A DNA stretch of 64,000 nt from IMG/VR virus record IMGVR_UViG_3300037247_001786, positions 64,001-128,000 of that record; one strand, given 5' to 3'. The DNA is from a virus (taxonomy: Duplodnaviria; Caudoviricetes). Both the position numbers and the translations under genes were made by a program. This document shows positions 945-45,137 of this stretch, piece by piece (position 1 is the first letter of the stretch; the number at the start of each line of letters is the position of its first letter). The notes beneath the pieces are model-generated. The model saw only the letters and a list, made by a program, of their open reading frames with translations. It did not search any database and was not told where the DNA came from.

Positions 945-3302
945 ATGAACAACAATCATCAAAGCTGGTACAAAAAAAATATTACCTCACAAAATAACCG
1001 CGTTAATGACGTTATAGATTGGGTTGATGACGACACCTCCGAAGAAATGGCTCAGATTATGAATCCTGAAATAGTAGATTTTGATGCTATAGAAAGGCAA
1101 CGAGCAGAAAACCTACCTTTAGAACAAGGAGAAATGCAAACTATTACAGAAGAAGAAATAGACGGCTATATCGTTGATGACCTGATAGAGCAAGATGAAA
1201 GATATATTAGAGACGAAAAAATGGAGCAAGATTATTTTGATGGAAAATATATTCCATCAGAAGAGGAACTTAAAGAAAGAGGTATAGAGCCGGTTATCGA
1301 CGATGAAACAGTTGTCGATGAGAATCCAGATGACGCTCCGGAGTTCGGAGAAGATCATATATCGGCAATGCAGTGGGCTATAGAGAATAATAGAGTTGTA
1401 AAGTTATCCTATCTAACTCTTGGTAAAAAAAGGGGAAGAGGAGGAAAACAGCACTTAAAAAGAGAAATAAGTGATGACAGAATCCCTGGAACAGGGGTTA
1501 ATATATGGAGAATAGTTGAACCTCATTATATTTATCCGGCGAGCAATGGACACGACATCCTAATAAGTTACGATAGATCAGTAAGGCATATCAGAGCTTT
1601 TAGAGTGTCTAATGTAACAGGAGTGGAATTTACTAAGAAAAGATCAACTAATGAACCTTCATATTTTAAACCAAGAGTTAAAATTAAAAATCCTGATGGG
1701 TTAGGGCAATCAGGTAAAATAAAAGGAATAGAAGCTATGAATGAAAATATTTTTCAAAATTTGAAAGAGATTGGTGATGATTTAGTATCAAAAGGATTAT
1801 CAAAAAATGCTGAATCAGTAACTAAAATGATGTCTCATTTGCTTAACATTAAGACAGCTCAATATGTAGGTCCTCAAGGATACTGGATCAGGCAAAAAAG
1901 ATGTTGGGATAATTGTTATAGGCATAAAAGAACAACTAGCCCAGAGAAAGCTGCTCAAACTGTATGGATGGAGTGCCGAGACGAATATAACGAGGCTATA
2001 AATAATAACTCAAGCGGTTGGGAAAAGTATGCTGAAGAAGATGCAGATCTTTTTAAATATGCTAGTAAGGAACAAGAAGATTGGGTGAAAGAAGAAAATA
2101 AAAAATTTGCTGAATCTGTTGATAAAAAAATAACAGAAGGAAAGTCTCATGGTATGTCTATTTGCTTAACTCTTGAACAGAGGAAAAATAGATATAACGA
2201 TATTCTTATTGCAGATGCCGATAATTTATCAAAAATAGCTGAAACACTAAAAGAAACAGGACAAGAGGAGCTAAGCGAGAAAATAGCAACAATTTCTATT
2301 GAATTATTAAAAAAAGCACAATTTGGAGGCGGGTTCGAAGGTGCAATGAATAAGCTGAGGAAATATAACCCTTTTTCAAGTAAGAGCCGAGCGAAAGGTC
2401 ACTCTGGTGACGTTATGACTCGTCTCAAAAATATCGCGATGCAAGCAGATAACTTGTCAACTCAATTTAATACTTTGCAAAGAGATGCCGCTCAATACGG
2501 GCAAGAGTATTCTCAAGAGCAACAGTCTTATAGAGATTTTGATCAACAACAACAAGCCAAAAAACAGCAAAGACAAGATATGTGGGGAAAAGTAAAGGAT
2601 GCTCCTGGACAAACATGGAACGCTCTGAAACAAAAAGGACAAGAGGCTTATCAGAACTTCTCAAATCCTCCTGGGCAAGCTCTTAGCGAAAGCGATACTG
2701 ATATTAAAGAAGCACAATATTCAGACAAGACAACAGGTGTAGTTTCCTTTATAAAAGATTTAAGATCACAACTTGAAGAATTTATGACTAATTTAGCAAC
2801 AGAAAAAAGTGCATTAAGTCAAATATCTGCCCAATCGACAGATACTTCATCAAGAGATAGAGCTGCTGGAGCATCTGTAGCTATTGAACAATTTATTACA
2901 AAAGCTAATCAATTTATATCATCTACGAGAACAGTTCAAGACGCTTTTAACGCAATCCCATCTATGGTAGAAGGTTTAAGTAAATTCTCTAATGATATAA
3001 ATATGATACAAAGAGGAGAGACTCCTCCAATAGATAGCGATAGAGATGGAGTGCCAGACAGTATAGATGTTGATAATAACCAGAATATGATAGCAGACGA
3101 AGAGGAGATAGCCACACCTGAAGAAGAGTTGGCTATACCTGAGAATATCCCACTTACTAGCAATCTAACAGGGGATAAACAACTAGATTTACAACAACTT
3201 ATGGAGAACGAAGATCTAAAAAGTTATCTAGCGTCATTGATGGGAATGTATAATAGTAAAATGAGAACATTAAAAAGACAACAGGCGAAAGAACAAATAT
3301 AA
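945..3302 (+). CDS. 785-aa putative head-associated protein with an N-terminal WYL-like domain
   Basis: aa ~140-230 match the WYL pattern (AIENNRVVKLSY...RIVEPHYIY...LISYDRSVRHIRAFRVSNV). Later Cys motif RCWDNCYR, KTAQ/KKAQ/KEAQ motifs and a Q-rich tract. Confidence 0.55.
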   Translation: MNNNHQSWYKKNITSQNNRVNDVIDWVDDDTSEEMAQIMNPEIVDFDAIERQRAENLPLEQGEMQTITEEEIDGYIVDDLIEQDERYIRDEKMEQDYFDGKYIPSEEELKERGIEPVIDDETVVDENPDDAPEFGEDHISAMQWAIENNRVVKLSYLTLGKKRGRGGKQHLKREISDDRIPGTGVNIWRIVEPHYIYPASNGHDILISYDRSVRHIRAFRVSNVTGVEFTKKRSTNEPSYFKPRVKIKNPDGLGQSGKIKGIEAMNENIFQNLKEIGDDLVSKGLSKNAESVTKMMSHLLNIKTAQYVGPQGYWIRQKRCWDNCYRHKRTTSPEKAAQTVWMECRDEYNEAINNNSSGWEKYAEEDADLFKYASKEQEDWVKEENKKFAESVDKKITEGKSHGMSICLTLEQRKNRYNDILIADADNLSKIAETLKETGQEELSEKIATISIELLKKAQFGGGFEGAMNKLRKYNPFSSKSRAKGHSGDVMTRLKNIAMQADNLSTQFNTLQRDAAQYGQEYSQEQQSYRDFDQQQQAKKQQRQDMWGKVKDAPGQTWNALKQKGQEAYQNFSNPPGQALSESDTDIKEAQYSDKTTGVVSFIKDLRSQLEEFMTNLATEKSALSQISAQSTDTSSRDRAAGASVAIEQFITKANQFISSTRTVQDAFNAIPSMVEGLSKFSNDINMIQRGETPPIDSDRDGVPDSIDVDNNQNMIADEEEIATPEEELAIPENIPLTSNLTGDKQLDLQQLMENEDLKSYLASLMGMYNSKMRTLKRQQAKEQI

Positions 3303-3388
3303 AATAAAATAAAGGATTTTAGGTAGTCCTGAAGTAATTAATAATAAATATACAAGTTTAACAAAAAAAATAGTTAATAAACAAGGAG

Positions 3389-18132: not shown

Positions 18133-18160
18133 TTGAAAGTGATTTTATATATGATACAAT
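18133..18160 (+). promoter_or_regulatory. Sigma70-like promoter with AGTGATT box
   Basis: TTGAA-AGTGATT-N10-TACAAT upstream of the TerD-domain gene. Confidence 0.65.
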
Positions 18161-30694: not shown

Positions 30695-31120
30695 ATGGCA
30701 GATAATGACATAGTTAAAAAAGATATTTGCGAAGAAAAACATAAATCAATTAAAACTGAAATAGTTGGACTAAAAGCAAATATAACAACTTCAAAAGAAT
30801 CACTCAGCAATAGACTAGACGAAGTCGATATCGCATTACTAGGAGATAGAACCGACCCAGGAGGACTACTTAGAGATATTATAGAAATAGAAAAAGAACT
30901 AAAAGCACATCAAGAAAAAGTGACCAAAGAACTAAGAAAACAAAATAACAAAATATATGTAGGACTAATAATACTAGCCCTAATATTCGGAGGAAAATTC
31001 CTGGGAGTAAGTATCGATACTATTAAAAACTTCTTCGAAACAAAAACAACTATTAAAAATGTACAACCAGAAAAAATAGAATTCGTATACGATATCCCTA
31101 CATGGGAGGAAAATAAATAA
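30695..31120 (+). CDS. Coiled-coil protein with one C-terminal TM segment
   Basis: IYVGLIILALIFGG hydrophobic segment after a coiled coil. Confidence 0.55.
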   Translation: MADNDIVKKDICEEKHKSIKTEIVGLKANITTSKESLSNRLDEVDIALLGDRTDPGGLLRDIIEIEKELKAHQEKVTKELRKQNNKIYVGLIILALIFGGKFLGVSIDTIKNFFETKTTIKNVQPEKIEFVYDIPTWEENK

Positions 31121-32118
31121 TGCCTACAATTACAGCAGTTACAGATAAAAGAGGGAGATTCAGACAAAACGATTGGGGAGTACTAATGCTAGCAATAACT
31201 GATAGCCACGGAAACCCAAGAGATGCCGAAGATATCTCCATAAGAATATATCAAGGATCAGATACAGTCGATTTTGATTCAGATATACCAATGCAAGTAG
31301 ATGACGGAAATTATGTATTCGAATGGGACATAGATGCAGACCAATCTACAGGAGAATATACCGCAGATTGGATGTTCACTGTAAATGATGCAGACTATAC
31401 AGAAACACAAACCTTTATCGTACATCCAGGATCAGATACCTCTTCAGCAGATATACTATATAATGAAAGATTAATAGCATTTAGAGAAGGACTAGAAAAG
31501 TTAATTATATGTGCTCAACAAATACCTGTGTATTTCGAACAAGCTAAACCATCTTTTGATAGAAAAAAATTCTCATTCTCTTATGGAAGATGGAACCAGT
31601 CACAAAGAGTTAAAGTATATAGAAATAAAAAAATTATGACCGAGGGAGTAGAAGTTAATTACTTTAAAGGAACAATAACTTTTGATGAAGAAATACTACC
31701 ACAAGATATTGTTAATGTAGATTATGACTTCAGATGGTTCACTGATGAGGAACTAGATGCATTCTTAAATAATTCACTTATGGCTTTTAATAGCTTCCCA
31801 CCTGTACAAGGATTTAATCTAATGAATGTACCAGCTATCCATATGCCAGTTATATTATATGGAGCAGCGAAAGATGCTATAAGACAAATAATGATGTGCC
31901 TTATGTTCCAAGAACCACAACAAGTATTTGGAGGACCAGAAAATGCACAAAAAGCATTCGGACAAATGGAAACTCTAAAACAAAATTATGAAAAAGATTG
32001 GGACAAATTGACCGAAGTTAAAAAATATGGAAGATATCCAAAAATGCATATGGTCGTAGTCCCAGAATATACGTTGCCTGGGGGTAGATCGAGATGGTTT
32101 CGTTATTTGTTTAAATAA
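31120..32118 (+). CDS. Putative neck/head-completion protein with N-terminal Ig-like domain
   Basis: GEYTADWMFTV Ig-like strand; FRWFTDEELDAFLN helix typical of head-tail adaptors. The function is inferred. Confidence 0.5.
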   Translation: MPTITAVTDKRGRFRQNDWGVLMLAITDSHGNPRDAEDISIRIYQGSDTVDFDSDIPMQVDDGNYVFEWDIDADQSTGEYTADWMFTVNDADYTETQTFIVHPGSDTSSADILYNERLIAFREGLEKLIICAQQIPVYFEQAKPSFDRKKFSFSYGRWNQSQRVKVYRNKKIMTEGVEVNYFKGTITFDEEILPQDIVNVDYDFRWFTDEELDAFLNNSLMAFNSFPPVQGFNLMNVPAIHMPVILYGAAKDAIRQIMMCLMFQEPQQVFGGPENAQKAFGQMETLKQNYEKDWDKLTEVKKYGRYPKMHMVVVPEYTLPGGRSRWFRYLFK

Positions 32119-32244: not shown

Positions 32245-33279
32245 ATGGAACAAGTAAAAAGAGACCCAACAAAAGCAGCGAAAGCAAAAATCAAAAAAAT
32301 GTTATCTAAATACAATTGGATAATAGCGGAGCCGTATTACGACACAGTAATAGACAATGGCTCAACGGGTAAAAGTAAGACATTTATAACGCTTAGACAG
32401 TTTAAGGAGCGTATAGACGAAGGACAAAGCCTTAAAGCAATGAAGGGAGAAGGAGTCTCAAAACACTTAATCCAATTCTTTAGTAATTTTCTTCAAGGTA
32501 AGATTAAATTAACAAAATCAGATTTCGAAGATAGATATAATGAAGGAAAAGAGCTAGACGAAATTTGTGCCGAATTTAATGTCCAACGAGGAGACCTTAC
32601 TTATCTTCGGCAACTTTATGGAATTAAAAGAAAAGGGGCAACTTTTATTAAGAGAAAAAAAACAGAAGAACCTCTTACCCAAATTCAAAAAGATCTTATC
32701 TATGGTTCTTTGATGGGAGACGCAAAATCCCAGAATAATAAGTGGAATACTTCAGTCGGTTTTGGGCACGGGCGAACACAAAAAGAGTATGTAGAATGGA
32801 AGCACTCTTTACTGAAGAATATTTCTACTCCAAAAGGTATAACTAAATATTCTTACTATGACGAAAGATATAAAAAAGATTACGATACATATAGATTTTA
32901 TACTCTCGCTAATTCCGACGTTGAAGAGATATTGCATAAGTTCTATACCAGTGACGGAAAACAAATTAACAACGATATCTTAGATCATTTATCTGCTTTT
33001 TCTATTGCTGTTTGGTATATGGATGACGGATATGCAGATAAAGGGAAATACGGAATAACTAATTATATCTTTTGTACTGACTCTTTCTCCTCTGAATCCT
33101 GTGACAATATAGTTAAATGGTTCGATGAAAAATGGGGGATTAAATCCCATAAGAGAGAGCGTCAACTAAGTGATAGAATAGGATATCGAATTGTTATTAG
33201 GGCAGAATCGAGAGATAGATTCATTTCTCTAGTCGAACCTCACCTCATTCCGTCGCTTCGATACAAAATAGAATTGTAA
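32245..33279 (+). mobile_element. Free-standing LAGLIDADG homing endonuclease
   Basis: LIYGSLMGDA and SIAVWYMDDG helices; FCTDSF; ends LIPSLRYKIEL. Confidence 0.85.
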
Positions 33280-33333: not shown

Positions 33334-33894
33334 ATGATTATTAGTGCTTTTGTATTTGGGATTATTAACAGCGTGGTATCTACAATTATCATCTCTATTG
33401 TGGTTTATTGTTATCTTCGTTTTAAAAATTATATAAGGATTAACTCTATCATTAACATAATCAATAGAGAAAGTACAGGGAGTGGAGTCCCTAGAGACAA
33501 AAATGACAGATTAATTGTTGGAGATGTCCAATGTCATATTTCGGAAAATAGAAGCTTAGAGTTTTTTAGTGTAAAAATAAAAAATATTACGTTATATACG
33601 GACGAAGGAGGTGCTCGCCGAGATAGGGAGCCTCCTCCAAAAGTTATAGATATTTCATCTTTAGGCGTTCAAAGTATATCTACTCCCTTAAATAAACTTA
33701 ATAATAACAGGTGGGGATTAATGACTCTTAACGAGATAAAATGTTGTCCTGGTTTTTATAGTAGATTTAAATGCGTGTGTTTTGATATAGATTATATTGA
33801 TACATACGGTCAGTGCCAATTTGGATTTGTATTATTAAATAAAGAAAAATCTAAAAAAATGATAGACCACTTATCTTCTACCGATTTTCTTTAA
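33334..33894 (+). CDS. N-terminally membrane-anchored hypothetical protein
   Basis: Hydrophobic first ~28 aa; has its own promoter and terminator (moron-like). Confidence 0.6.
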   Translation: MIISAFVFGIINSVVSTIIISIVVYCYLRFKNYIRINSIINIINRESTGSGVPRDKNDRLIVGDVQCHISENRSLEFFSVKIKNITLYTDEGGARRDREPPPKVIDISSLGVQSISTPLNKLNNNRWGLMTLNEIKCCPGFYSRFKCVCFDIDYIDTYGQCQFGFVLLNKEKSKKMIDHLSSTDFL

Positions 33895-33922
33895 CAAATA
33901 AGACTAACTAGCCCAAATTTTG

Positions 33923-33974
33923 CCCAAACCGTCAAAAGTTTGGGCTTTTTTAGTGATTTAATTTCTGTTAAGAT
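33923..33974 (+). terminator. Terminator fused to an AGTGATT promoter (cassette junction)
   Basis: GCCCAAAC-CGTCAAAA-GTTTGGGC-T6, then AGTGATT-N10-TAAGAT. Confidence 0.75.
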
Positions 33975-34168
33975 GAAGTGTTAAATTTAATGGAGAAGAT
34001 ATGAACAGAGAAAAGTTTTGGGCAAAAACTTTTATTTGTAGGAGATGTGGAAGTAGGAGTAGATGTAATAGTTACTGTTTAAAATTAACATGTTCTTGTG
34101 GATACGTCCTTTTTAGGAGCAAAAAGGCAAAAAGATTAGAGTTGTAGTGGTTAAATTGGAGAAATATA

Positions 34169-34600
34169 ATGAAGTTATTTTTTAGAACTAGAAGAGAAGA
34201 TTTAAAGCTATTAAATTTTATATTAGAAGAATTAGATTTTACCCAATTCGAGTTAAATTGTTTTGACGACAAAGAGAATTGTGTCATTCGGATGGAAGAC
34301 GCTTCTTTCCGCGATATTTTTAATTTTATGGATAATTTATTTTATAGTTATTCTGGTGCGGATGAAATTACGTTTCCTATGGGTTCTGTTTTAATATATC
34401 ATAAAAAAGATAGGAATATTTATATTGATTTTAAAGATTTCGAGGGGCAATCAGATATTCGTCCTTTTGATGAGGCGATTAATCCTGATTACGGATTAGA
34501 TATTGATGATTTTGACATTGATAGTGGTAATTATTTTATCGCTATAAAGTCGCCTGGTGGTTTTTATTGTTATCAATTATCTGGTGACCCTTATAAGTAA
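34169..34600 (+). CDS. Hypothetical protein
   Basis: GGAG SD; 143 aa. Confidence 0.6.
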   Translation: MKLFFRTRREDLKLLNFILEELDFTQFELNCFDDKENCVIRMEDASFRDIFNFMDNLFYSYSGADEITFPMGSVLIYHKKDRNIYIDFKDFEGQSDIRPFDEAINPDYGLDIDDFDIDSGNYFIAIKSPGGFYCYQLSGDPYK

Positions 34601-34628
34601 TTCCCAGTATGCGATACAAGATAGGCAA
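34600..34628 (+). repeat. 29-bp direct repeat, copy 1 (encodes IPSMRYKIG)
   Basis: ATTCCCAGTATGCGATACAAGATAGGCAA, identical to 36151-36179. Confidence 0.9.
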
Positions 34629-34638
34629 GTGATTTTCC

Positions 34639-34667
34639 TTTCAAAGTGATTATAGATTCACTATAAT
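34639..34667 (+). promoter_or_regulatory. AGTGATT-type promoter
   Basis: TTTCAA-AGTGATT-N10-TATAAT, followed by GAGGAGG SD. Confidence 0.7.
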
Positions 34668-34693
34668 ATGATCTTAATTTTGAGGAGGAAAAG

Positions 34694-36175
34694 GTGAGAG
34701 AGATATTAGATGATATAGATTTATTTGCGGCAAGTAGACAAGTAGTAGAATATATAATAGCCGGGAATGGAAAGCGAGGAAAATGCCTATCTATTACGCA
34801 TCCGGAAATTGCTAAAGAGTGGGATTTTACTAAAAATAAATTAACACCAAAAGAGGTTACTTATGGGACTAGTAAAAAAGTCTATTGGATTTGTCCTAAA
34901 GGTCATGAATTTGATGCGTTAATAAATAACAGGGCAAGAAGAGGCGATGGTTGTCCTTGTTGTTCTGGGCATAAAGTACATAAAGATAATTGTTTGGCTA
35001 CCCTTAGGCCCGATTTGGCTAAAGAATGGCATCCAACTTTAAACGATTTAACACCAGAAGAAGTTACTTGTGGTAACAATAAAAAAGTGTGGTGGATATG
35101 TCCTAAAGGACATGAATATGAGATAAAGATAAGCCATAGATGTTCGAGAAATCAGGGTTGTCATTATTGTTCTGGGAGGAAAGTTTGTCAAGACAATTGT
35201 TTGGCTACCCTTAGTCCCGATTTGGCTAAAGAATGGCATCCAACTTTAAACGATTTAACACCAGAAGAAGTTACTTGTGGTAGCAAGAAAAAAGTCTATT
35301 GGATTTGCCCTAAAGGGCATGAATATGACGCGACAATAAATAACAGGACTAACGGAGCTAATTGCTCCTATTGTTCCGGACAAAGAGTGCATAAAGATAA
35401 TTGTTTAGCTACTCTCAAACCCGATTTAGCTAAAGAATGGGATTTCATTAAAAATGATTTAACTCCAGAAGAAGTTACTTGTGGTAGCCCTAAAAAAGTC
35501 TATTGGATTTGTCCTAAAGGACATGAATATGACTCGACAATAAGTAGCAGGACTAACGGAACTAATTGCCCCTATTGTTCTGGACAAAGAGTTTGTCAAG
35601 ACAATTGTTTGGCTACCCTTAGGCCCGATTTGGCTAAAGAATGGCATCCAACTTTAAACGATTTAACACCAGAAGAAGTTACTTGCGGTAGCCCTAAAAA
35701 AGTGTGGTGGATATGCCCTAAAGGGCATGAATATGACGCATCTATATGGAAAAGGGCAAGGCGAAGGCAGGGGTGCCGTATCTGTTCCTATGGCAAATCT
35801 GAAAAAGAGGTAGGAGATATTTTAAAAATATATTTCGACAAGTGGAAAATTTTAAGACAGAAAAAAATATGGGATAGCTATAAAAGGTATAATCATAAAA
35901 GATATTGTGATTATTGGTTAGAGAGAAATGGGGCGAAAATTATGGTAGAATATGATGGCAGGCAACATTTTGAACCAGTTAGATTTGCAAATTTTTCTTG
36001 GAAAAAAGCACAAAAAAATCTTGAAAAAACTCAAATAAAAGACAAACTTGACGCAAAATTTTGCAAAGAGCATGGAATTATTCTTCATCGGATCAAATAT
36101 AATGAAGATAAAGAAGAGTCTATTAAGAGACTAAAAGCAAGTTTAGAGTTATTCCCAGTATGCGATACAAGATAG
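34694..36175 (+). CDS. Zinc-ribbon repeat (DUF4379-like x5) protein with C-terminal PD-(D/E)XK-like nuclease
   Basis: Five KEW....N.LTPEEVT.GS.KKV.W.CPKGHEY......R......C..C repeats; C-terminal CDYW...MVEYDGRQHF. Confidence 0.8.
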   Translation: MREILDDIDLFAASRQVVEYIIAGNGKRGKCLSITHPEIAKEWDFTKNKLTPKEVTYGTSKKVYWICPKGHEFDALINNRARRGDGCPCCSGHKVHKDNCLATLRPDLAKEWHPTLNDLTPEEVTCGNNKKVWWICPKGHEYEIKISHRCSRNQGCHYCSGRKVCQDNCLATLSPDLAKEWHPTLNDLTPEEVTCGSKKKVYWICPKGHEYDATINNRTNGANCSYCSGQRVHKDNCLATLKPDLAKEWDFIKNDLTPEEVTCGSPKKVYWICPKGHEYDSTISSRTNGTNCPYCSGQRVCQDNCLATLRPDLAKEWHPTLNDLTPEEVTCGSPKKVWWICPKGHEYDASIWKRARRRQGCRICSYGKSEKEVGDILKIYFDKWKILRQKKIWDSYKRYNHKRYCDYWLERNGAKIMVEYDGRQHFEPVRFANFSWKKAQKNLEKTQIKDKLDAKFCKEHGIILHRIKYNEDKEESIKRLKASLELFPVCDTR

Positions 36176-36234
36176 GCAAATAGAGGTTTTCTTTTATTTT
36201 CGCGGAATAAATAGTTATGAACTGGTATAAACAA
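36151..36234 (+). repeat. Junction repeat: 29-bp copy 2 and 75-bp copy 1
   Basis: 36160-36234 matches 37640-37714 at 74 of 75 positions. Confidence 0.9.
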
Positions 36235-37041
36235 ATTAAAATATCTTATACAAGAGCGAAGCAATGGGATCAAGAAACTTTAGACAGAATTGGGCAGTTG
36301 TTTTTAGAGGGTAATAATATATCTCAAGTTGCTAAAATAATGAATATTCCTCGTACAACCCTAACCTCTTTAAACAAAAAATACAAATGGAAAGAATCTA
36401 GAGTTTTTTCTCAAGACGAATTAGATACAATCGGAGAATTAATATCAGAAGGTAATTCTTTAACCGAAATTGCAAATATGCTTAATATCCCTCGTTCGAC
36501 ATTGTCTTGGATGAGAGGAAAATACAATTGGGAAAGTTTTGACGAACAAAAACGAAAATGGTGGAAACAATTAGCCGATTCTTATCTAGAGGGATTAAGC
36601 TTTGATGATGTAGCCGCCAAATTTAACACGACTAACATAAGTGTTCGTAATGCATTAATATTTTTAGGTTTAAAAGATAAGATACGGTCTCAATCAGAGA
36701 TTTCTAAACAAAAATGGCAAGATGAAGATTTTAGAAATAAGATGATGGAATACCATGGAAGTGATGAAAATAGAAAAAGGGTAAGTGAATGGTCTAAGAA
36801 GAATTGGCAAAATCCTGAAATGAGAAAGAGGTTGACAGATGCTCCTACTCAATGGTGGGCAGAGCGAGGAGGACTAGAGGGTTATTTAACATCTATTCCT
36901 AAAGAGCAAGCTATTACTTATTTAAATGGACTTGTCGCTAGAAAACATACTGAAAATCCTGATATGGCATTTGCTATTAAAAATAAATATATGCAAATAA
37001 TAGAGCGAGCCAATTCTGAACCTCAACTACCTACTATATAA
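36217..37041 (+). CDS. Multi-HTH protein with NUMOD3-like basic tail (starts MNWYK)
   Basis: Three helix-turn-helix-like units (ISQVAKIMNIPRTTL, LTEIANMLNIPRSTL, FDDVAAKFNTT) and a SK.KWQDE.FR-type tail. Confidence 0.7.
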   Translation: MNWYKQIKISYTRAKQWDQETLDRIGQLFLEGNNISQVAKIMNIPRTTLTSLNKKYKWKESRVFSQDELDTIGELISEGNSLTEIANMLNIPRSTLSWMRGKYNWESFDEQKRKWWKQLADSYLEGLSFDDVAAKFNTTNISVRNALIFLGLKDKIRSQSEISKQKWQDEDFRNKMMEYHGSDENRKRVSEWSKKNWQNPEMRKRLTDAPTQWWAERGGLEGYLTSIPKEQAITYLNGLVARKHTENPDMAFAIKNKYMQIIERANSEPQLPTI

Positions 37042-37045
37042 ACTA

Positions 37046-37075
37046 GCCCAAACCCTCAAAAGTTTGGGCTTTTTT
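37046..37075 (+). terminator. Rho-independent terminator
   Basis: GCCCAAAC-CCTCAAAA-GTTTGGGC plus T-run; nearly identical to the copy at 33923. Confidence 0.8.
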
Positions 37076-37136
37076 CTTGGACAATATACTGTCGTACCTC
37101 GTCATAGCGTGCCGTAGCTAGGAGTAAGTGATTTCT

Positions 37137-37165
37137 TTGCAAAGTGATTAAGATATCGCTATAAT
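37137..37165 (+). promoter_or_regulatory. Sigma70-like promoter with AGTGATT box
   Basis: TTGCAA-N17 (starting AGTGATT)-TATAAT. Confidence 0.75.
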
Positions 37166-37193
37166 ATATCTTTAATTATTTTGAGGAGAGAGG

Positions 37194-37655
37194 ATGCCAG
37201 AGATATTAGGCGATATAGATATGTTCGCGGGAGAAAGAAAGAAAAAATGCACTTATTGCAAAAGATTTAAAAGCTTAGATAAATTTGGAAAAGATAAAGG
37301 GCAATCTTCTGGATTAAAATGCAGATGTAAGGGATGTATGAATCTTATTCAAAGGCAGGACTATGCTAATAGTAGTAGACGCTACGAAGATATGACCAAG
37401 AGAGCTTTGAAACGCCTTTATGGAATATCTTTAGAGCAATATAAAAAAATGGCTGATGCACAAATGAACTGTTGTGCTATCTGTGGCAAACATCAAAAGA
37501 ATTTTAATCATCGCTTAGCCGTTGACCATTGCCATGAAACTGGAAAAATACGAGGGCTACTATGTGCTAAATGCAATACGGGTATCGGAAATTTTAAAGA
37601 CGATATTCACTTATTAGGACAAGCCATAGAGTATCTTCGATGCGATACAAGATAG
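37194..37655 (+). CDS. Recombination endonuclease VII-family (His-Me finger) nuclease
   Basis: CAICGK...LAVDHCHETGKIRGLLCAKCNTGIG...AIEYL. Confidence 0.85.
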   Translation: MPEILGDIDMFAGERKKKCTYCKRFKSLDKFGKDKGQSSGLKCRCKGCMNLIQRQDYANSSRRYEDMTKRALKRLYGISLEQYKKMADAQMNCCAICGKHQKNFNHRLAVDHCHETGKIRGLLCAKCNTGIGNFKDDIHLLGQAIEYLRCDTR

Positions 37656-37714
37656 GCAAATAGAGGTTTTCTTTTATTTTCGCGGAATAAATAGTTATGA
37701 ATTGGTATAAACAA
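37640..37714 (+). repeat. 75-bp junction repeat, copy 2
   Basis: Spans the nuclease stop, the intergenic promoter and the first six codons of the next gene. Confidence 0.9.
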
Positions 37715-38353
37715 TCACAATCTATAGGTAAGAGGTGGACATTAGAAGACCTACAGGTAATAAGAGAATTACTCGAAGAGGGGCATTCCTCAAGGCAAAT
37801 AGCTAAATTATTTGAAGTAGCCCACTCTACAATAAATACGTTAAACAATAAATACAATTTAAAATCTTTTCCTAAAAAACAATTGAACAGAATTAAACCT
37901 ATGGAAGATAAGATAAAAGAACTCTATCTATTACCTCCTGATGGTCAAGGTTTATCTGCTATGGAAGTTGGAAGACAATTAGATATTTCTCCTACTACTG
38001 TTCGTAAAGTTATAGGAAATTTAGGGCTAGATGTTAGAGGGGGGGCTGAAGCTTGGGATGATGATAGAAGAGAGCAAACAAGTGAAAGATTTAAAAAGCA
38101 ATGGGAAGACCCGGAACATAAGGAAATGATGAGAGGAGTTTCGGAACAGTATTGGAACAATCCCGCAAATAGGGAAAATGCGAGTCTTCGAGAAAAAGCA
38201 AGATGGGAAGATGACCCTACGATTAGAGAAAGGGCTGTTAAGAAAAGAGAAGAATATTGGGCAAATTATCCTGGTGGTTTTAATGCTTGGATACAATCCT
38301 TTCCTCCTGAGAAGCAAAAAGAAATTCTTAATGCGATAAACGCTCCAAATTAA
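37697..38353 (+). CDS. Multi-HTH protein with NUMOD3-like tail (starts MNWYK); paralog of 36217
   Basis: SSRQIAKLFEVAHSTI and SAMEVGRQLDISPTTV HTH units; ..QWEDPEHKEMM tail. Confidence 0.7.
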   Translation: MNWYKQSQSIGKRWTLEDLQVIRELLEEGHSSRQIAKLFEVAHSTINTLNNKYNLKSFPKKQLNRIKPMEDKIKELYLLPPDGQGLSAMEVGRQLDISPTTVRKVIGNLGLDVRGGAEAWDDDRREQTSERFKKQWEDPEHKEMMRGVSEQYWNNPANRENASLREKARWEDDPTIRERAVKKREEYWANYPGGFNAWIQSFPPEKQKEILNAINAPN

Positions 38354-38361
38354 TTAACTTC

Positions 38362-38415
38362 AAGCCCATCTCTTATTGAGTTGGGCTTTTTTAGTGATTT
38401 AATTTCTGTTAAGAT
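38362..38415 (+). terminator. Terminator fused to an AGTGATT promoter (cassette junction)
   Basis: AGCCCA...TGGGCT-T-run, then TGGGCTTTTTTAGTGATTTAATTTCTGTTAAGATGAAGT as at 33941-33979. Confidence 0.75.
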
Positions 38416-38438
38416 GAAGTATTAAATGGAGCAAAGAT

Positions 38439-38909
38439 ATGGGATATAGAAATTATTTATATAAGATAAAAAAAGAAGATTATGTTAAGGGGCGAGAGTT
38501 TTTCGATTATGACGATGATATTGCGACTGAGATATATGAGCTTGGCAAATATCTTGATAACGAAGTTAGAGAAGGTCTCTCTGTTATAGATGAAAATAAC
38601 TGCCCAGATACTGAATGCTTGTTAATTGATATAGAATCGGTACTTTGCATCATCTCTCATTATGCTCAAAGGCATCTTAATTTTCTCAATACTTTAAAAA
38701 GAGGAAAGAACCCTCAATATACTATGGAATCACATCTTGATGACCAGATTCGAAAATGGTCTCGCCCAGATGACTTTGTTTATGATTTAGATAGAGGTAG
38801 AGAAAATATAGTAAACAGTTGGGAATTTCAATATGAGATTTTTGATTTAGTTCGTATTTATAAGACATTTGATACTGAAAATTATTTTTTAATATGGGCA
38901 GGATATTAG
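38439..38909 (+). CDS. Hypothetical protein
   Basis: GGAG SD; 156 aa. Confidence 0.6.
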   Translation: MGYRNYLYKIKKEDYVKGREFFDYDDDIATEIYELGKYLDNEVREGLSVIDENNCPDTECLLIDIESVLCIISHYAQRHLNFLNTLKRGKNPQYTMESHLDDQIRKWSRPDDFVYDLDRGRENIVNSWEFQYEIFDLVRIYKTFDTENYFLIWAGY

Positions 38910-39025
38910 AATGAAGAAAAAATGTATTTGTTCTCGTTGTAAGAGTATATGGACTCGGCAATCAAGGAGTTGCATAAAAATAACTTGCACTTGCGGAAAA
39001 GTGGTTATGGACAGGACAAAAGAAT

Positions 39026-39292
39026 ATGAATCGAGAAGAAGACATGAGATTTAAACCTGGGCAAAAAGTAAAACTTAAAAAAAGTGCTTTAAGTAGTCAG
39101 CAAGATGGAGTTGTATCTAATTTATATCCTCCTTATGTAGCGACTATTAGTTTCGTTACCCCTGACCCTCATTCTGGTGATTATATGTACGAGTTTAAGG
39201 AATGCCCTTGGGGTTGGTACGAGAGTGAGGTAGATTGTCTTTATAGGTGGGAAAAGGCATCTAATATATTTGCGATAATAGATTTAGATTAA
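39026..39292 (+). CDS. Hypothetical protein, SH3/KOW-like (FKPGQKVKL)
   Basis: ORF track; ends FAIIDLD. Confidence 0.5.
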   Translation: MNREEDMRFKPGQKVKLKKSALSSQQDGVVSNLYPPYVATISFVTPDPHSGDYMYEFKECPWGWYESEVDCLYRWEKASNIFAIIDLD

Positions 39293-41149: not shown

Positions 41150-41219
41150 GACAATAGTGATGAAGAGTTAAGGGTAGTAGGGTCAATAGAGGATCGTTTT
41201 GAGATATTAGATTTATGAT

Positions 41220-41248
41220 AAGATGGTTAGCCAATAGCCATCTTTTTT
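41220..41248. terminator. Terminator between convergent gene blocks
   Basis: AAGATGGTTA/TAGCCATCTT hairpin with a T-run on the + strand. Confidence 0.65.
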
Positions 41249-44528: not shown

Positions 44529-45137
44529 TTATTCTCCTTTATTTCCTATACTAATATTGCCTGATCCAGTATTAGTTATATTTATTGTAGGAGGAGTAAG
44601 TTCGTGTCCCTGTTGATGAGGCATACGATTTCCATAGATTGAACTTCTCCAATCGGTTACGCCATCTAAATATTTAGCAGCTTCTAATGAACGACTTGGG
44701 GTAACATTTTTTCTATCAATGTCAAGATATCTCATTGCTTCCCTTGCCATTCCTTGTAGTGTTGGTCCTGGCATATCGTCATCTTCATATTCTGCTTTAA
44801 GGTCTTCTACAACGTTAACGCATCTATTAAATGTTTTAATTGCCCTTTTTGATTCTTGTTTCGGATATTTCCAAGCTTCTGAAAAGAGGGGGAATGCGTG
44901 AACATCGCTCATAAAGACAGCGGTCAATACAATCCTGCTTTTTGATTCGGTCAGTTTTACTTTACAAGTGTAGCCATCGCTATCCATTGTATCATTATAG
45001 TCTGTTTCGTGACCTTTTGACATGTAGGCAAGTTTTACCATCTTCTCTTTGCGAAAAAAGTGTTTTTCAAATGAATGAATAACTTTAGGGTCTTGACATT
45101 TTCTTTGATACCAGTTCATACTCTCATTCTTCCGCAT
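44529..45137 (-). CDS. Hypothetical protein (MNWYQ near N-terminus)
   Basis: 202 aa; contains MNWYQRK and KLAY. Confidence 0.6.
   Translation of the reverse strand: MRKNESMNWYQRKCQDPKVIHSFEKHFFRKEKMVKLAYMSKGHETDYNDTMDSDGYTCKVKLTESKSRIVLTAVFMSDVHAFPLFSEAWKYPKQESKRAIKTFNRCVNVVEDLKAEYEDDDMPGPTLQGMAREAMRYLDIDRKNVTPSRSLEAAKYLDGVTDWRSSIYGNRMPHQQGHELTPPTINITNTGSGNISIGNKGE

Follow-up and report, generated by a model that had tools for sequence, protein, structure and literature searches.

The stretch of DNA analysed here, a window of 64,000 bases (bases 64001-128000 of the 460,978-base virus record IMGVR_UViG_3300037247_001786, which has direct terminal repeats and 34% G+C), contains genes for two unrelated predicted nucleases, a zinc-ribbon protein with a PD-(D/E)XK-type domain (nuclease 1) and an endonuclease VII (EndoVII) protein (nuclease 2). 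Both genes have the same promoter arrangement, the same 12-codon leader and the same four last residues, CDTR. In the initial annotation this was taken as a constant expression frame within which nuclease payloads are swapped. We show that the bodies are indeed exchanged behind the same promoter, ribosome-binding site and 12 codons, but that the 3' side of the supposed frame is the orphaned end of a LAGLIDADG endonuclease gene, homologues of the nucleases ending otherwise. In our reading, to which we give a probability of about 0.7, recombination left the shared pieces behind as joints, nuclease 1 is chimeric and the common tail is an accident of frame.

The features on which this reading rests are the following.

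34600-34632, plus strand: tail A, an orphaned LAGLIDADG 3' end, with its TGA stop inside the first AAGTGATT box
34627-34693, plus strand: promoter P1, with doubled AAGTGATT box, -10 element TATAAT at 34662-34667 and Shine-Dalgarno sequence GAGGAGG
34694-34729, plus strand: leader copy 1, GTG start, REILDDIDLFA, apparently grafted, a leader without counterpart in the zinc-ribbon nuclease homologues
34694-36175, plus strand: nuclease 1 (493 amino acids), consisting of the leader, 17 residues without counterpart, five DUF4379 domains, a PD-(D/E)XK-type (DUF2726/Vsr-like) domain and eight codons of tail B
36151-36183, plus strand: tail B, an orphaned LAGLIDADG 3' end, whose other frame gives nuclease 1 its end ..FPVCDTR-stop
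36160-36234, plus strand: 75-nucleotide block, copy 1 (from the repeat analysis), made up of the rest of tail B, 37 non-coding nucleotides without a clear Shine-Dalgarno sequence and six codons, MNWYKQ
37076-37125, plus strand: spacer, homologous to the spacer between LAGLIDADG end and EndoVII promoter in the relative L023 (blastn match from 37095)
37126-37193, plus strand: promoter P2, with doubled AAGTGATT box, -10 element TATAAT at 37160-37165 and Shine-Dalgarno sequence
37194-37655, plus strand: nuclease 2 (153 amino acids), consisting of the native leader MPEILGDIDMFA, a zinc ribbon and endonuclease VII (His-Me finger), with the last four codons and the stop from tail C
37635-37663, plus strand: tail C, an orphaned LAGLIDADG 3' end, 27 of 28 bases of which match the L023 gene end
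37640-37714, plus strand: 75-nucleotide block, copy 2 (from the repeat analysis)

The bodies of the two proteins are unrelated, in agreement with the initial annotation: five DUF4379 domains and a PD-(D/E)XK-type domain stand against Endonuclease_7. The DUF4379 domains of nuclease 1 (Pfam PF14311, a treble-clef zinc ribbon; E 1.3e-99) are encoded at 34751-35776 by five tandem DNA repeats of 204-207 nucleotides, which are 66-83% identical. Arrays of this domain with Vsr-like, DUF2726 or MTES_1575 nuclease ends form a family of thousands of members in bacteria and phages. The C-terminal 140 amino acids match PHROG families of homing or intron-encoded nucleases (PHROG 9084, 'homing endonuclease', E 6.7e-13). 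Against the DUF2726 profile nuclease 1 itself stays under the cut-off (E 0.03), and six of its seven aligned homologues match (best E 7.9e-07). A PDB sequence search with the profile of the C-terminal domain gave a zinc-ribbon match only. With the AlphaFold2 (AF2) model of this domain (predicted local distance difference test score, pLDDT, 81.7), the top Foldseek matches are all PD-(D/E)XK nucleases, at E 0.006 or weaker, the list including R2 endonuclease, Hjc, Bax1, TnsA, Vsr and I-Bth0305I; D57, E70, Q75, H76 and D101 are invariant in the alignment of homologues of the domain. The PD-(D/E)XK identity of this predicted domain is supported indirectly. Nuclease 2 matches Pfam Endonuclease_7 (PF02945) over residues 71-149 with E 5.3e-25 (87.6 bits against a cut-off of 23.6) and PHROG 2633 with E 2.3e-38. 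Its zinc-binding cysteines and its D-H-x-H ... N core (C94, C97, D111, H112, H114, C124, C127 and N128) are invariant in a 12-sequence alignment.

In front of these unrelated bodies, 34627-34730 and 37126-37230 are alike at 87 of 109 aligned columns (80%), and the homology that the initial annotation had claimed is thereby borne out: the alignment score of 58 compares with a maximum of 14 in 2000 random windows and of 17 among 36 other generic-promoter sites of the phage. The doubled AAGTGATT box, TATAAT and GAGGAG that it had described are all present. The arrangement AAGTGATT-N(8-9)-AAGTGATT is confined to the two nuclease sites, whether the window (0 expected) or all 460,978 bases of the genome are searched, and a six-frame translation of the genome contains no such peptide besides the leaders V/MREILDDIDLFA and MPEILGDIDMFA. 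In part, the shared frame is common to the phage at large. Its general promoter, (c)TTGAAAGTGATT-N10-TATAAT, is found at 38 sites against 1 in the reversed-sequence control, mostly 5' of genes, and comprises the second AAGTGATT box, ten bases and TATAAT. Since this promoter type is genome-wide, the second box and the TATAAT are an ordinary part of the frame; specific to the two nucleases are the extra upstream box, the stretch from the -10 element to the start codon, and the 12 codons. When the three 5' leaders were folded to a consensus, no conserved pairs emerged, so that an RNA switch masking the ribosome-binding site is unsupported. Examples of general-promoter sites in the window lie at 18138, 32188, 33280, 33952, 38393 and 45175.

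The lineage to which this front is native can be read from the closest relative of nuclease 2, P0002 (76% identity), whose gene lies directly 3' of a LAGLIDADG-containing gene of 701 amino acids on a 71.8-kb contig. Upstream, the gene order of that contig is the order of the window, namely proteins of 243, 278 and 332 amino acids followed by the LAGLIDADG gene. In L023, a 1379-base piece of the P0002 gene region, the LAGLIDADG frame ends in ..PHLIPSMRYKIGK-stop and is followed by a spacer of 49 nucleotides, a doubled AAGTGATT promoter, a Shine-Dalgarno sequence, MPEVLDDVDMFTEK.. and the EndoVII zinc ribbon; the EndoVII leader reads MPEVLDDVDMF and the protein ends in ..AIEYLKSY. L023 is 82% identical to 37095-37555, and 74.5% identical to 34627-34726 at the first nuclease. 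Because the same spacer, doubled box and leader stand on an EndoVII gene there, the 5' module is the native front of the EndoVII lineage. Among the 119 homologues listed for nuclease 2, only P0002 has the leader; more distant EndoVII proteins begin right at the zinc ribbon, and the EndoVII of the relative L076 keeps only M-DIDI. Yersinia phage phiYeO3-12 gene 13.5 is among the best annotated phage relatives, with 43.7% identity over 82% of P0002.

For nuclease 1, the leader is present in none of the 119 homologues listed. Those closest in build start plainly (P0123 with MKNNKKSISQTHKELIKEW, the L080 gene with MKKTVADYPELVKQW), and the homologues in L071, L080 and P0123 all have plain N-termini and native C-termini, the native ends of such zinc-ribbon nucleases being ..SIKYVL and ..KQSLN. 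As the leader is absent from these homologues and native to EndoVII, nuclease 1 is a chimera: a foreign promoter and 12 codons, 17 residues without counterpart, and then its own zinc ribbons. The search for the leader across phages that the initial annotation had proposed yielded a third gene, P0002, but in IMG/VR and the JGI metagenomes no new fused domain, since this third gene is an EndoVII orthologue. A strict degenerate leader pattern had no match in IMG/VR, and a loose pattern a single internal one, in a giant-virus AAA ATPase. Of the 59 matches in JGI metagenomes, L023 alone stands at the start of a gene and has a nuclease after it; the others lie inside unrelated open reading frames (ORFs), NuoF-like and others, or in tiny frames, and even the exact EILDDIDLFA in L034 sits deep within an unrelated ORF.

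The 3' side has another source. Both nuclease ORFs end in CDTR-stop, as had been noticed, and the 18-mer GCGATACAAGATAGGCAA is present three times, at 34611, 36162 and 37642. In their own frame tails A, B and C read IPSMRYKIGK-stop, which is the LAGLIDADG-frame end in L023 and differs little from ..IIPSMRYKIGEK-stop of the 548-kb phage G003 and from the resident gene's ..IPSLRYKIEL-stop; when (A)TG-CGA-TAC-AAG-ATA-G is read with a shift of one base downstream, it gives CDTR-stop. Tail A is not part of any gene: it follows the stop of the ORF at 34169-34600 and is joined directly to P1 without a spacer of the L023 type. The first 29 nucleotides of tail B (36151-36179) are identical to tail A, and the nucleotide homology of nuclease 1 with L071 ends at 36153, at the start of tail B. 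The serine codon is AGT in tails A and B and TCG in tail C and L023; the tail copies thus derive from alleles of the LAGLIDADG gene that diverged while they were coding. In the AF2 models of both nucleases the tail residues are of low confidence. Judged from the reading frames, CDTR appears to be an accidental out-of-frame reading of the orphaned LAGLIDADG end and no protein tail, and both nucleases appear to have lost about three native codons at the joint. The two copies of the 75-nucleotide block are 99% identical, and each runs into the gene that follows (HTH1 and HTH2, for helix-turn-helix). This block, the third tail copy 5' of the first promoter and the genome-wide promoter type had escaped the initial annotation.

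Orphaned LAGLIDADG ends recur in four related giant phages and begin 8 to 19 codons before the stop. In G003, two of them lie between small zinc-ribbon ORFs directly after the phage's own LAGLIDADG gene. The LAGLIDADG body carries an in-frame methyltransferase fusion in L023 and in L008, and what used to be the gene end is left stranded just after the stop of the methyltransferase. Fusions of LAGLIDADG to an N6/N4 DNA methyltransferase were seen in three relatives in all (L023 1-905, L008 3654-5770 and L074 4482-6320).

The surroundings of the two genes hold these further features.

32245-33279, plus strand: resident LAGLIDADG_2 gene, ending in ..PHLIPSLRYKIEL-stop (Pfam PF03161, E 3.9e-33)
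33922-33986, plus strand: composite of terminator and generic promoter (PeSL-like), copy 1 (from repeat families, terminator scan and sequence)
36217-37041, plus strand: HTH1, multi-helix-turn-helix protein with MNWYKQ start (Pfam HTH_7, HTH_38 and others; PHROG 59, 8446, 664)
37045-37075, plus strand: intrinsic terminator (from repeats and terminator scan)
37697-38353, plus strand: HTH2 (218 amino acids), MNWYKQ start (Pfam)
38363-38427, plus strand: composite of terminator and generic promoter, copy 2, which closes a 4.5-kb block (from repeats)

All genes of the locus are on the plus strand. A conserved gene for a protein of 332 amino acids (31120-32118) is followed by the LAGLIDADG_2 gene (32245-33279), three small ORFs, nuclease 1 (34694-36175), HTH1 (36217-37041), a terminator, nuclease 2 (37194-37655), HTH2 (37697-38353) and a further terminator. 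Orthologues of the resident LAGLIDADG gene, 43-54% identical, are found in L005-L008 after the same 332-amino-acid gene. Its position is kept in every relative examined, the variable region begins directly 3' of it, and the genes found there differ from relative to relative. Both nucleases are absent from L005-L008. Among the relatives examined, an EndoVII gene occupies this place only here and in the L023 contig, and DUF4379 nucleases are found only here, in L071 and in L080; the genes are thus sporadic among close relatives at an otherwise syntenic place, as free-standing homing endonuclease genes are. Their sporadic occurrence, the promoter that each has to itself and folds of the kinds found in homing endonucleases lead us to read the two nucleases as putatively active, selfish genes of the homing type.

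The promoter part of composite copy 1 (47 nucleotides) is 98% identical to 38381-38427. Over 30 nucleotides the terminator at 37045-37075 shares 97% identity with that at 33922-33951, and its identity to the terminator 3' of the HTH2 orthologue in L071 is 100%. Repeated units of promoter and stem-loop around variable genes, as in the PeSL type of arrangement, are thus present at the locus. A blastn comparison of the locus with 50,697 phage records gave no match. An Rfam scan of 31-41 kb gave no credible match, which argues that no intron is present there. Two small cysteine-rich ORFs, at 34001-34147 (48 amino acids) and 38911-39054 (47 amino acids), have a common C-x2-C ... C-x-C-G pattern and sit in the promoter-led units opened by the composites at 33922-33986 and 38363-38427. 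No kinship could be detected between the ORFs at 34169-34600 and 38439-38909, nor between the ORF at 33334-33894 and an ORF of 190 amino acids in L080.

Taken together, we propose that the nucleases are independent homing-type units, each composed of promoter, nuclease, HTH gene and terminator, that came to lie in the hypervariable stretch downstream of the LAGLIDADG gene. A diverged copy of the EndoVII 5' module (spacer, extra AAGTGATT box, generic early-type promoter, ribosome-binding site and 12 codons), still joined to a LAGLIDADG end, would have been fused in frame to the zinc-ribbon/PD-(D/E)XK nuclease, and this fusion would have given nuclease 1 its expression signals and a foreign N-terminus, the leader being there probably a passenger. 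Each nuclease ORF runs one base out of frame into the orphaned last 30 or so bases of a LAGLIDADG gene, with which the next cassette, that of the HTH gene, would begin. In this group of phages, recombination has probably used the LAGLIDADG gene end as a joint again and again, stacking cassettes of different phage origin by way of short shared sequences, namely gene ends and terminator-promoter composites.

Several points weigh against this reading. The three copies of the leader vary conservatively, as E-[IV]-L-x-D-[IV]-D-[LM]-F, which a function of the peptide could explain, and its survival on nuclease 1 might be selected. The 75-nucleotide block is 99% identical and the HTH genes 28%, which needs recent gene conversion or strong constraint. 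All three tails stand in the same frame relative to the preceding ORF; this has a chance of about 1 in 9 and could hint at a coding role. The relative that links the front to EndoVII was read over the 1379 bases of L023, and a donor genome with the nuclease 1 chimera was not found.

An alternative that we consider unlikely is homing in the manner of the WHO elements. At FBA1 in Torulaspora and Lachancea, endonuclease genes are interleaved with orphaned 3' fragments by repeated replacement of the 3' end (PMC7282813). Our locus likewise has nuclease genes interleaved with orphaned 3' fragments of one gene, and the mobile unit could be LAGLIDADG end, nuclease and LAGLIDADG fragment. Such a unit would home into the LAGLIDADG genes of other phages, replacing their 3' ends and displacing the old ones downstream. 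Homology arms and expression signals would, on this unlikely view, make up the shared frame, a second nuclease having taken over the arms of the first. In line with this, nuclease 1 lies between tails A and B with 29 identical bases in common, and EndoVII follows the LAGLIDADG end in L023 and precedes tail C here. An endonuclease gene with the 3' end of its target gene upstream and a 3' fragment downstream is also the layout of the published model, in which the FBA1 3' end upstream of the WHO gene and the downstream fragment provide homology (PMC7282813). Two further observations point the same way: in four phages the starts of the orphaned ends fall within a narrow zone, 8 to 19 codons ahead of the stop, and the serine switch between AGT and TCG/TCT is what one would expect if the alleles had evolved while coding. 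What speaks against it is that the array is detached from the resident LAGLIDADG gene by three other ORFs, that tails A and B are identical so that a difference between resistant and sensitive alleles is not visible, that the genes between the orphaned ends of G003 are small zinc-ribbon ORFs without a recognisable nuclease, and that two unrelated nucleases would both have to cut near the same site. The case differs from yeast also in that it concerns a phage and fragments of about 30 bases, in that the presumed target is itself an endonuclease gene, and in that it is known from sequence alone. By analogy, the last 30-55 or so bases of the giant-phage LAGLIDADG gene might, though we doubt it, be a landing site for 3'-end-replacing nuclease cassettes, one selfish nuclease gene being targeted by others. 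If orphaned ends did mark a homing site, homing by 3'-end replacement would be extended from yeasts and fungal mitochondria to phages, and a testable route of gene gain in the hypervariable regions of giant phages would be at hand.

Less probable still is that nuclease and downstream HTH protein form a two-subunit endonuclease, in which the HTH protein would choose the DNA site and the leader would be a docking peptide. The neighbourhood does recur, since EndoVII is followed by two HTH genes in L076, and in L071 a DUF4379 nuclease is followed by an ORF of 61 amino acids and the HTH2 orthologue, which is 80% identical. HTH1 resembles the DNA-binding parts of phage HNH endonuclease families, the HTH proteins matching those of PHROG families 59 and 8446, and no terminator separates nuclease and HTH gene. 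However, the EndoVII of P0002 has the leader and no HTH gene behind it, that of L076 has HTH neighbours and only the DIDI remnant of a leader, three HTH genes in L074 follow the LAGLIDADG-methyltransferase gene with no other nuclease, and nuclease 1 already has five zinc ribbons. As an orphaned LAGLIDADG end precedes each HTH gene, the neighbourhood may be positional only. A fusion of nuclease and HTH ORFs by read-through or frameshift was considered and rejected, there being stops in all frames between the ORFs.

The initial annotation had also proposed that the leader brings the nucleases to the sliding clamp at replication forks, promoter, leader and tail being a kept expression frame. Clamp-binding pentapeptides include QADMF and QLDLF, and those of the QL[SD]LF type have a leading glutamine and hydrophobic residues at positions 2, 4 and 5. 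Although the acidic-hydrophobic D-[IV]-D-[LM]-F resembles the end of such pentapeptides, the substitutions across the three leader copies are conservative, and many small ORFs of relatives end in a similar short motif, R-[FY]-[ED]-I-L-D-L, this proposal is very improbable: the leaders DIDLF, DIDMF and DVDMF all lack the glutamine; searches with PF00712, PF02768 and PF09116 found no clamp gene in the phage; the leader is a native part of a single gene family; the tail is no coding feature, and the promoter core is the generic one of the phage; and the AF2 model of nuclease 2 places IDMF (residues 8-11) in a strand next to the zinc ribbon and not in a free peptide.

Returning to the recombination joints that we favour, there are known precedents for modular shuffling in the hypervariable regions of phages, for free-standing homing endonuclease genes and for chimeric gene fronts. 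In T4-type phages, a hypervariable region of non-essential genes is reported to be bounded by short repeated cassettes of a sigma-70-like promoter and a stem-loop terminator (PeSL), and recombination at these accounts for insertions and replacements (PMC2839356; PMC4122927). Our locus is similar in its recurring composites at 33922-33986 and 38363-38427 and the further terminator at 37045-37075, and differs from it in that the nuclease joints are made of an orphaned LAGLIDADG 3' end and a gene front with 12 codons, from which chimeric proteins therefore result. The free-standing homing genes of T-even phages (seg, mob; intron-less homing) are small, have their own promoters, lie between conserved genes, occur sporadically and are found in mosaic regions. 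The nucleases of our locus are likewise sporadic among relatives, but their folds are EndoVII and a Vsr-like PD-(D/E)XK with DUF4379, not GIY-YIG or classical HNH. The C-terminal model of nuclease 1 has weak structural similarity to the Vsr-like PD-(D/E)XK phage homing endonuclease I-Bth0305I (PDB 3r3p; template modelling (TM) score by target 0.56, E 0.33-0.35) and to Vsr (1cw0; TM by query 0.56, E 0.33-0.35), and unlike in I-Bth0305I the DNA-binding part of nuclease 1 is a DUF4379 zinc-ribbon array. T7-like EndoVII (phiYeO3-12 gene 13.5) has a zinc ribbon and EndoVII build like nuclease 2 and is without the 12-residue leader. In the literature we found no description of arrays of one endonuclease gene's orphaned ends at cassette joints in four related giant phages.

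The locus offers a clean and datable example of gene building in giant phages, in which a whole gene front has apparently been grafted onto an unrelated nuclease and cassettes appear to be joined through the left-over ends of a neighbouring endonuclease gene. It is also a warning that other frames and relatives should be checked before shared short N- or C-terminal peptides are called functional tags.

A number of minor observations concern short motifs at gene ends and starts. In L006 (14133-15616) and L007 (12900-18200) a synonymously varying [SN]-R-[FY]-[ED]-I-L-D-L-stop terminates many small ORFs that are unrelated to one another and whose stop is often overlapped by the ORF that follows; a short remnant lies in the window at 41150-41221. 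This motif and the nuclease leader have E-I-L-D..L and the 12 bases GAGATATTAGAT in common, which may be chance. Thirteen otherwise unrelated ORFs of the phage begin with M-[NS]-W-Y-[KQ], often followed by x-A-Q, those in the window at 36217 and 37697 (HTH1 and HTH2) and at 45119 on the minus strand. Such starts are also numerous in relatives (L005, L071, L074 and L076). Most of these ORFs are without a Shine-Dalgarno sequence and have an A/T-rich stretch resembling TAAAT/ATATAG right 5' of the ATG. The motif could be an N-terminal tag or a special, perhaps leaderless, start signal; we did not find it in the literature. In L074 (6363-8687) and L076 (3950-5366) two or three multi-HTH paralogues with MNWYKR starts stand in tandem, each after a repeated upstream piece of the type AAGCAGG..ATTATNTTAAT. 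Just upstream of the EndoVII-HTH-HTH group of L076, a HigB-toxin-like gene is found together with a small downstream ORF (2774-3345).

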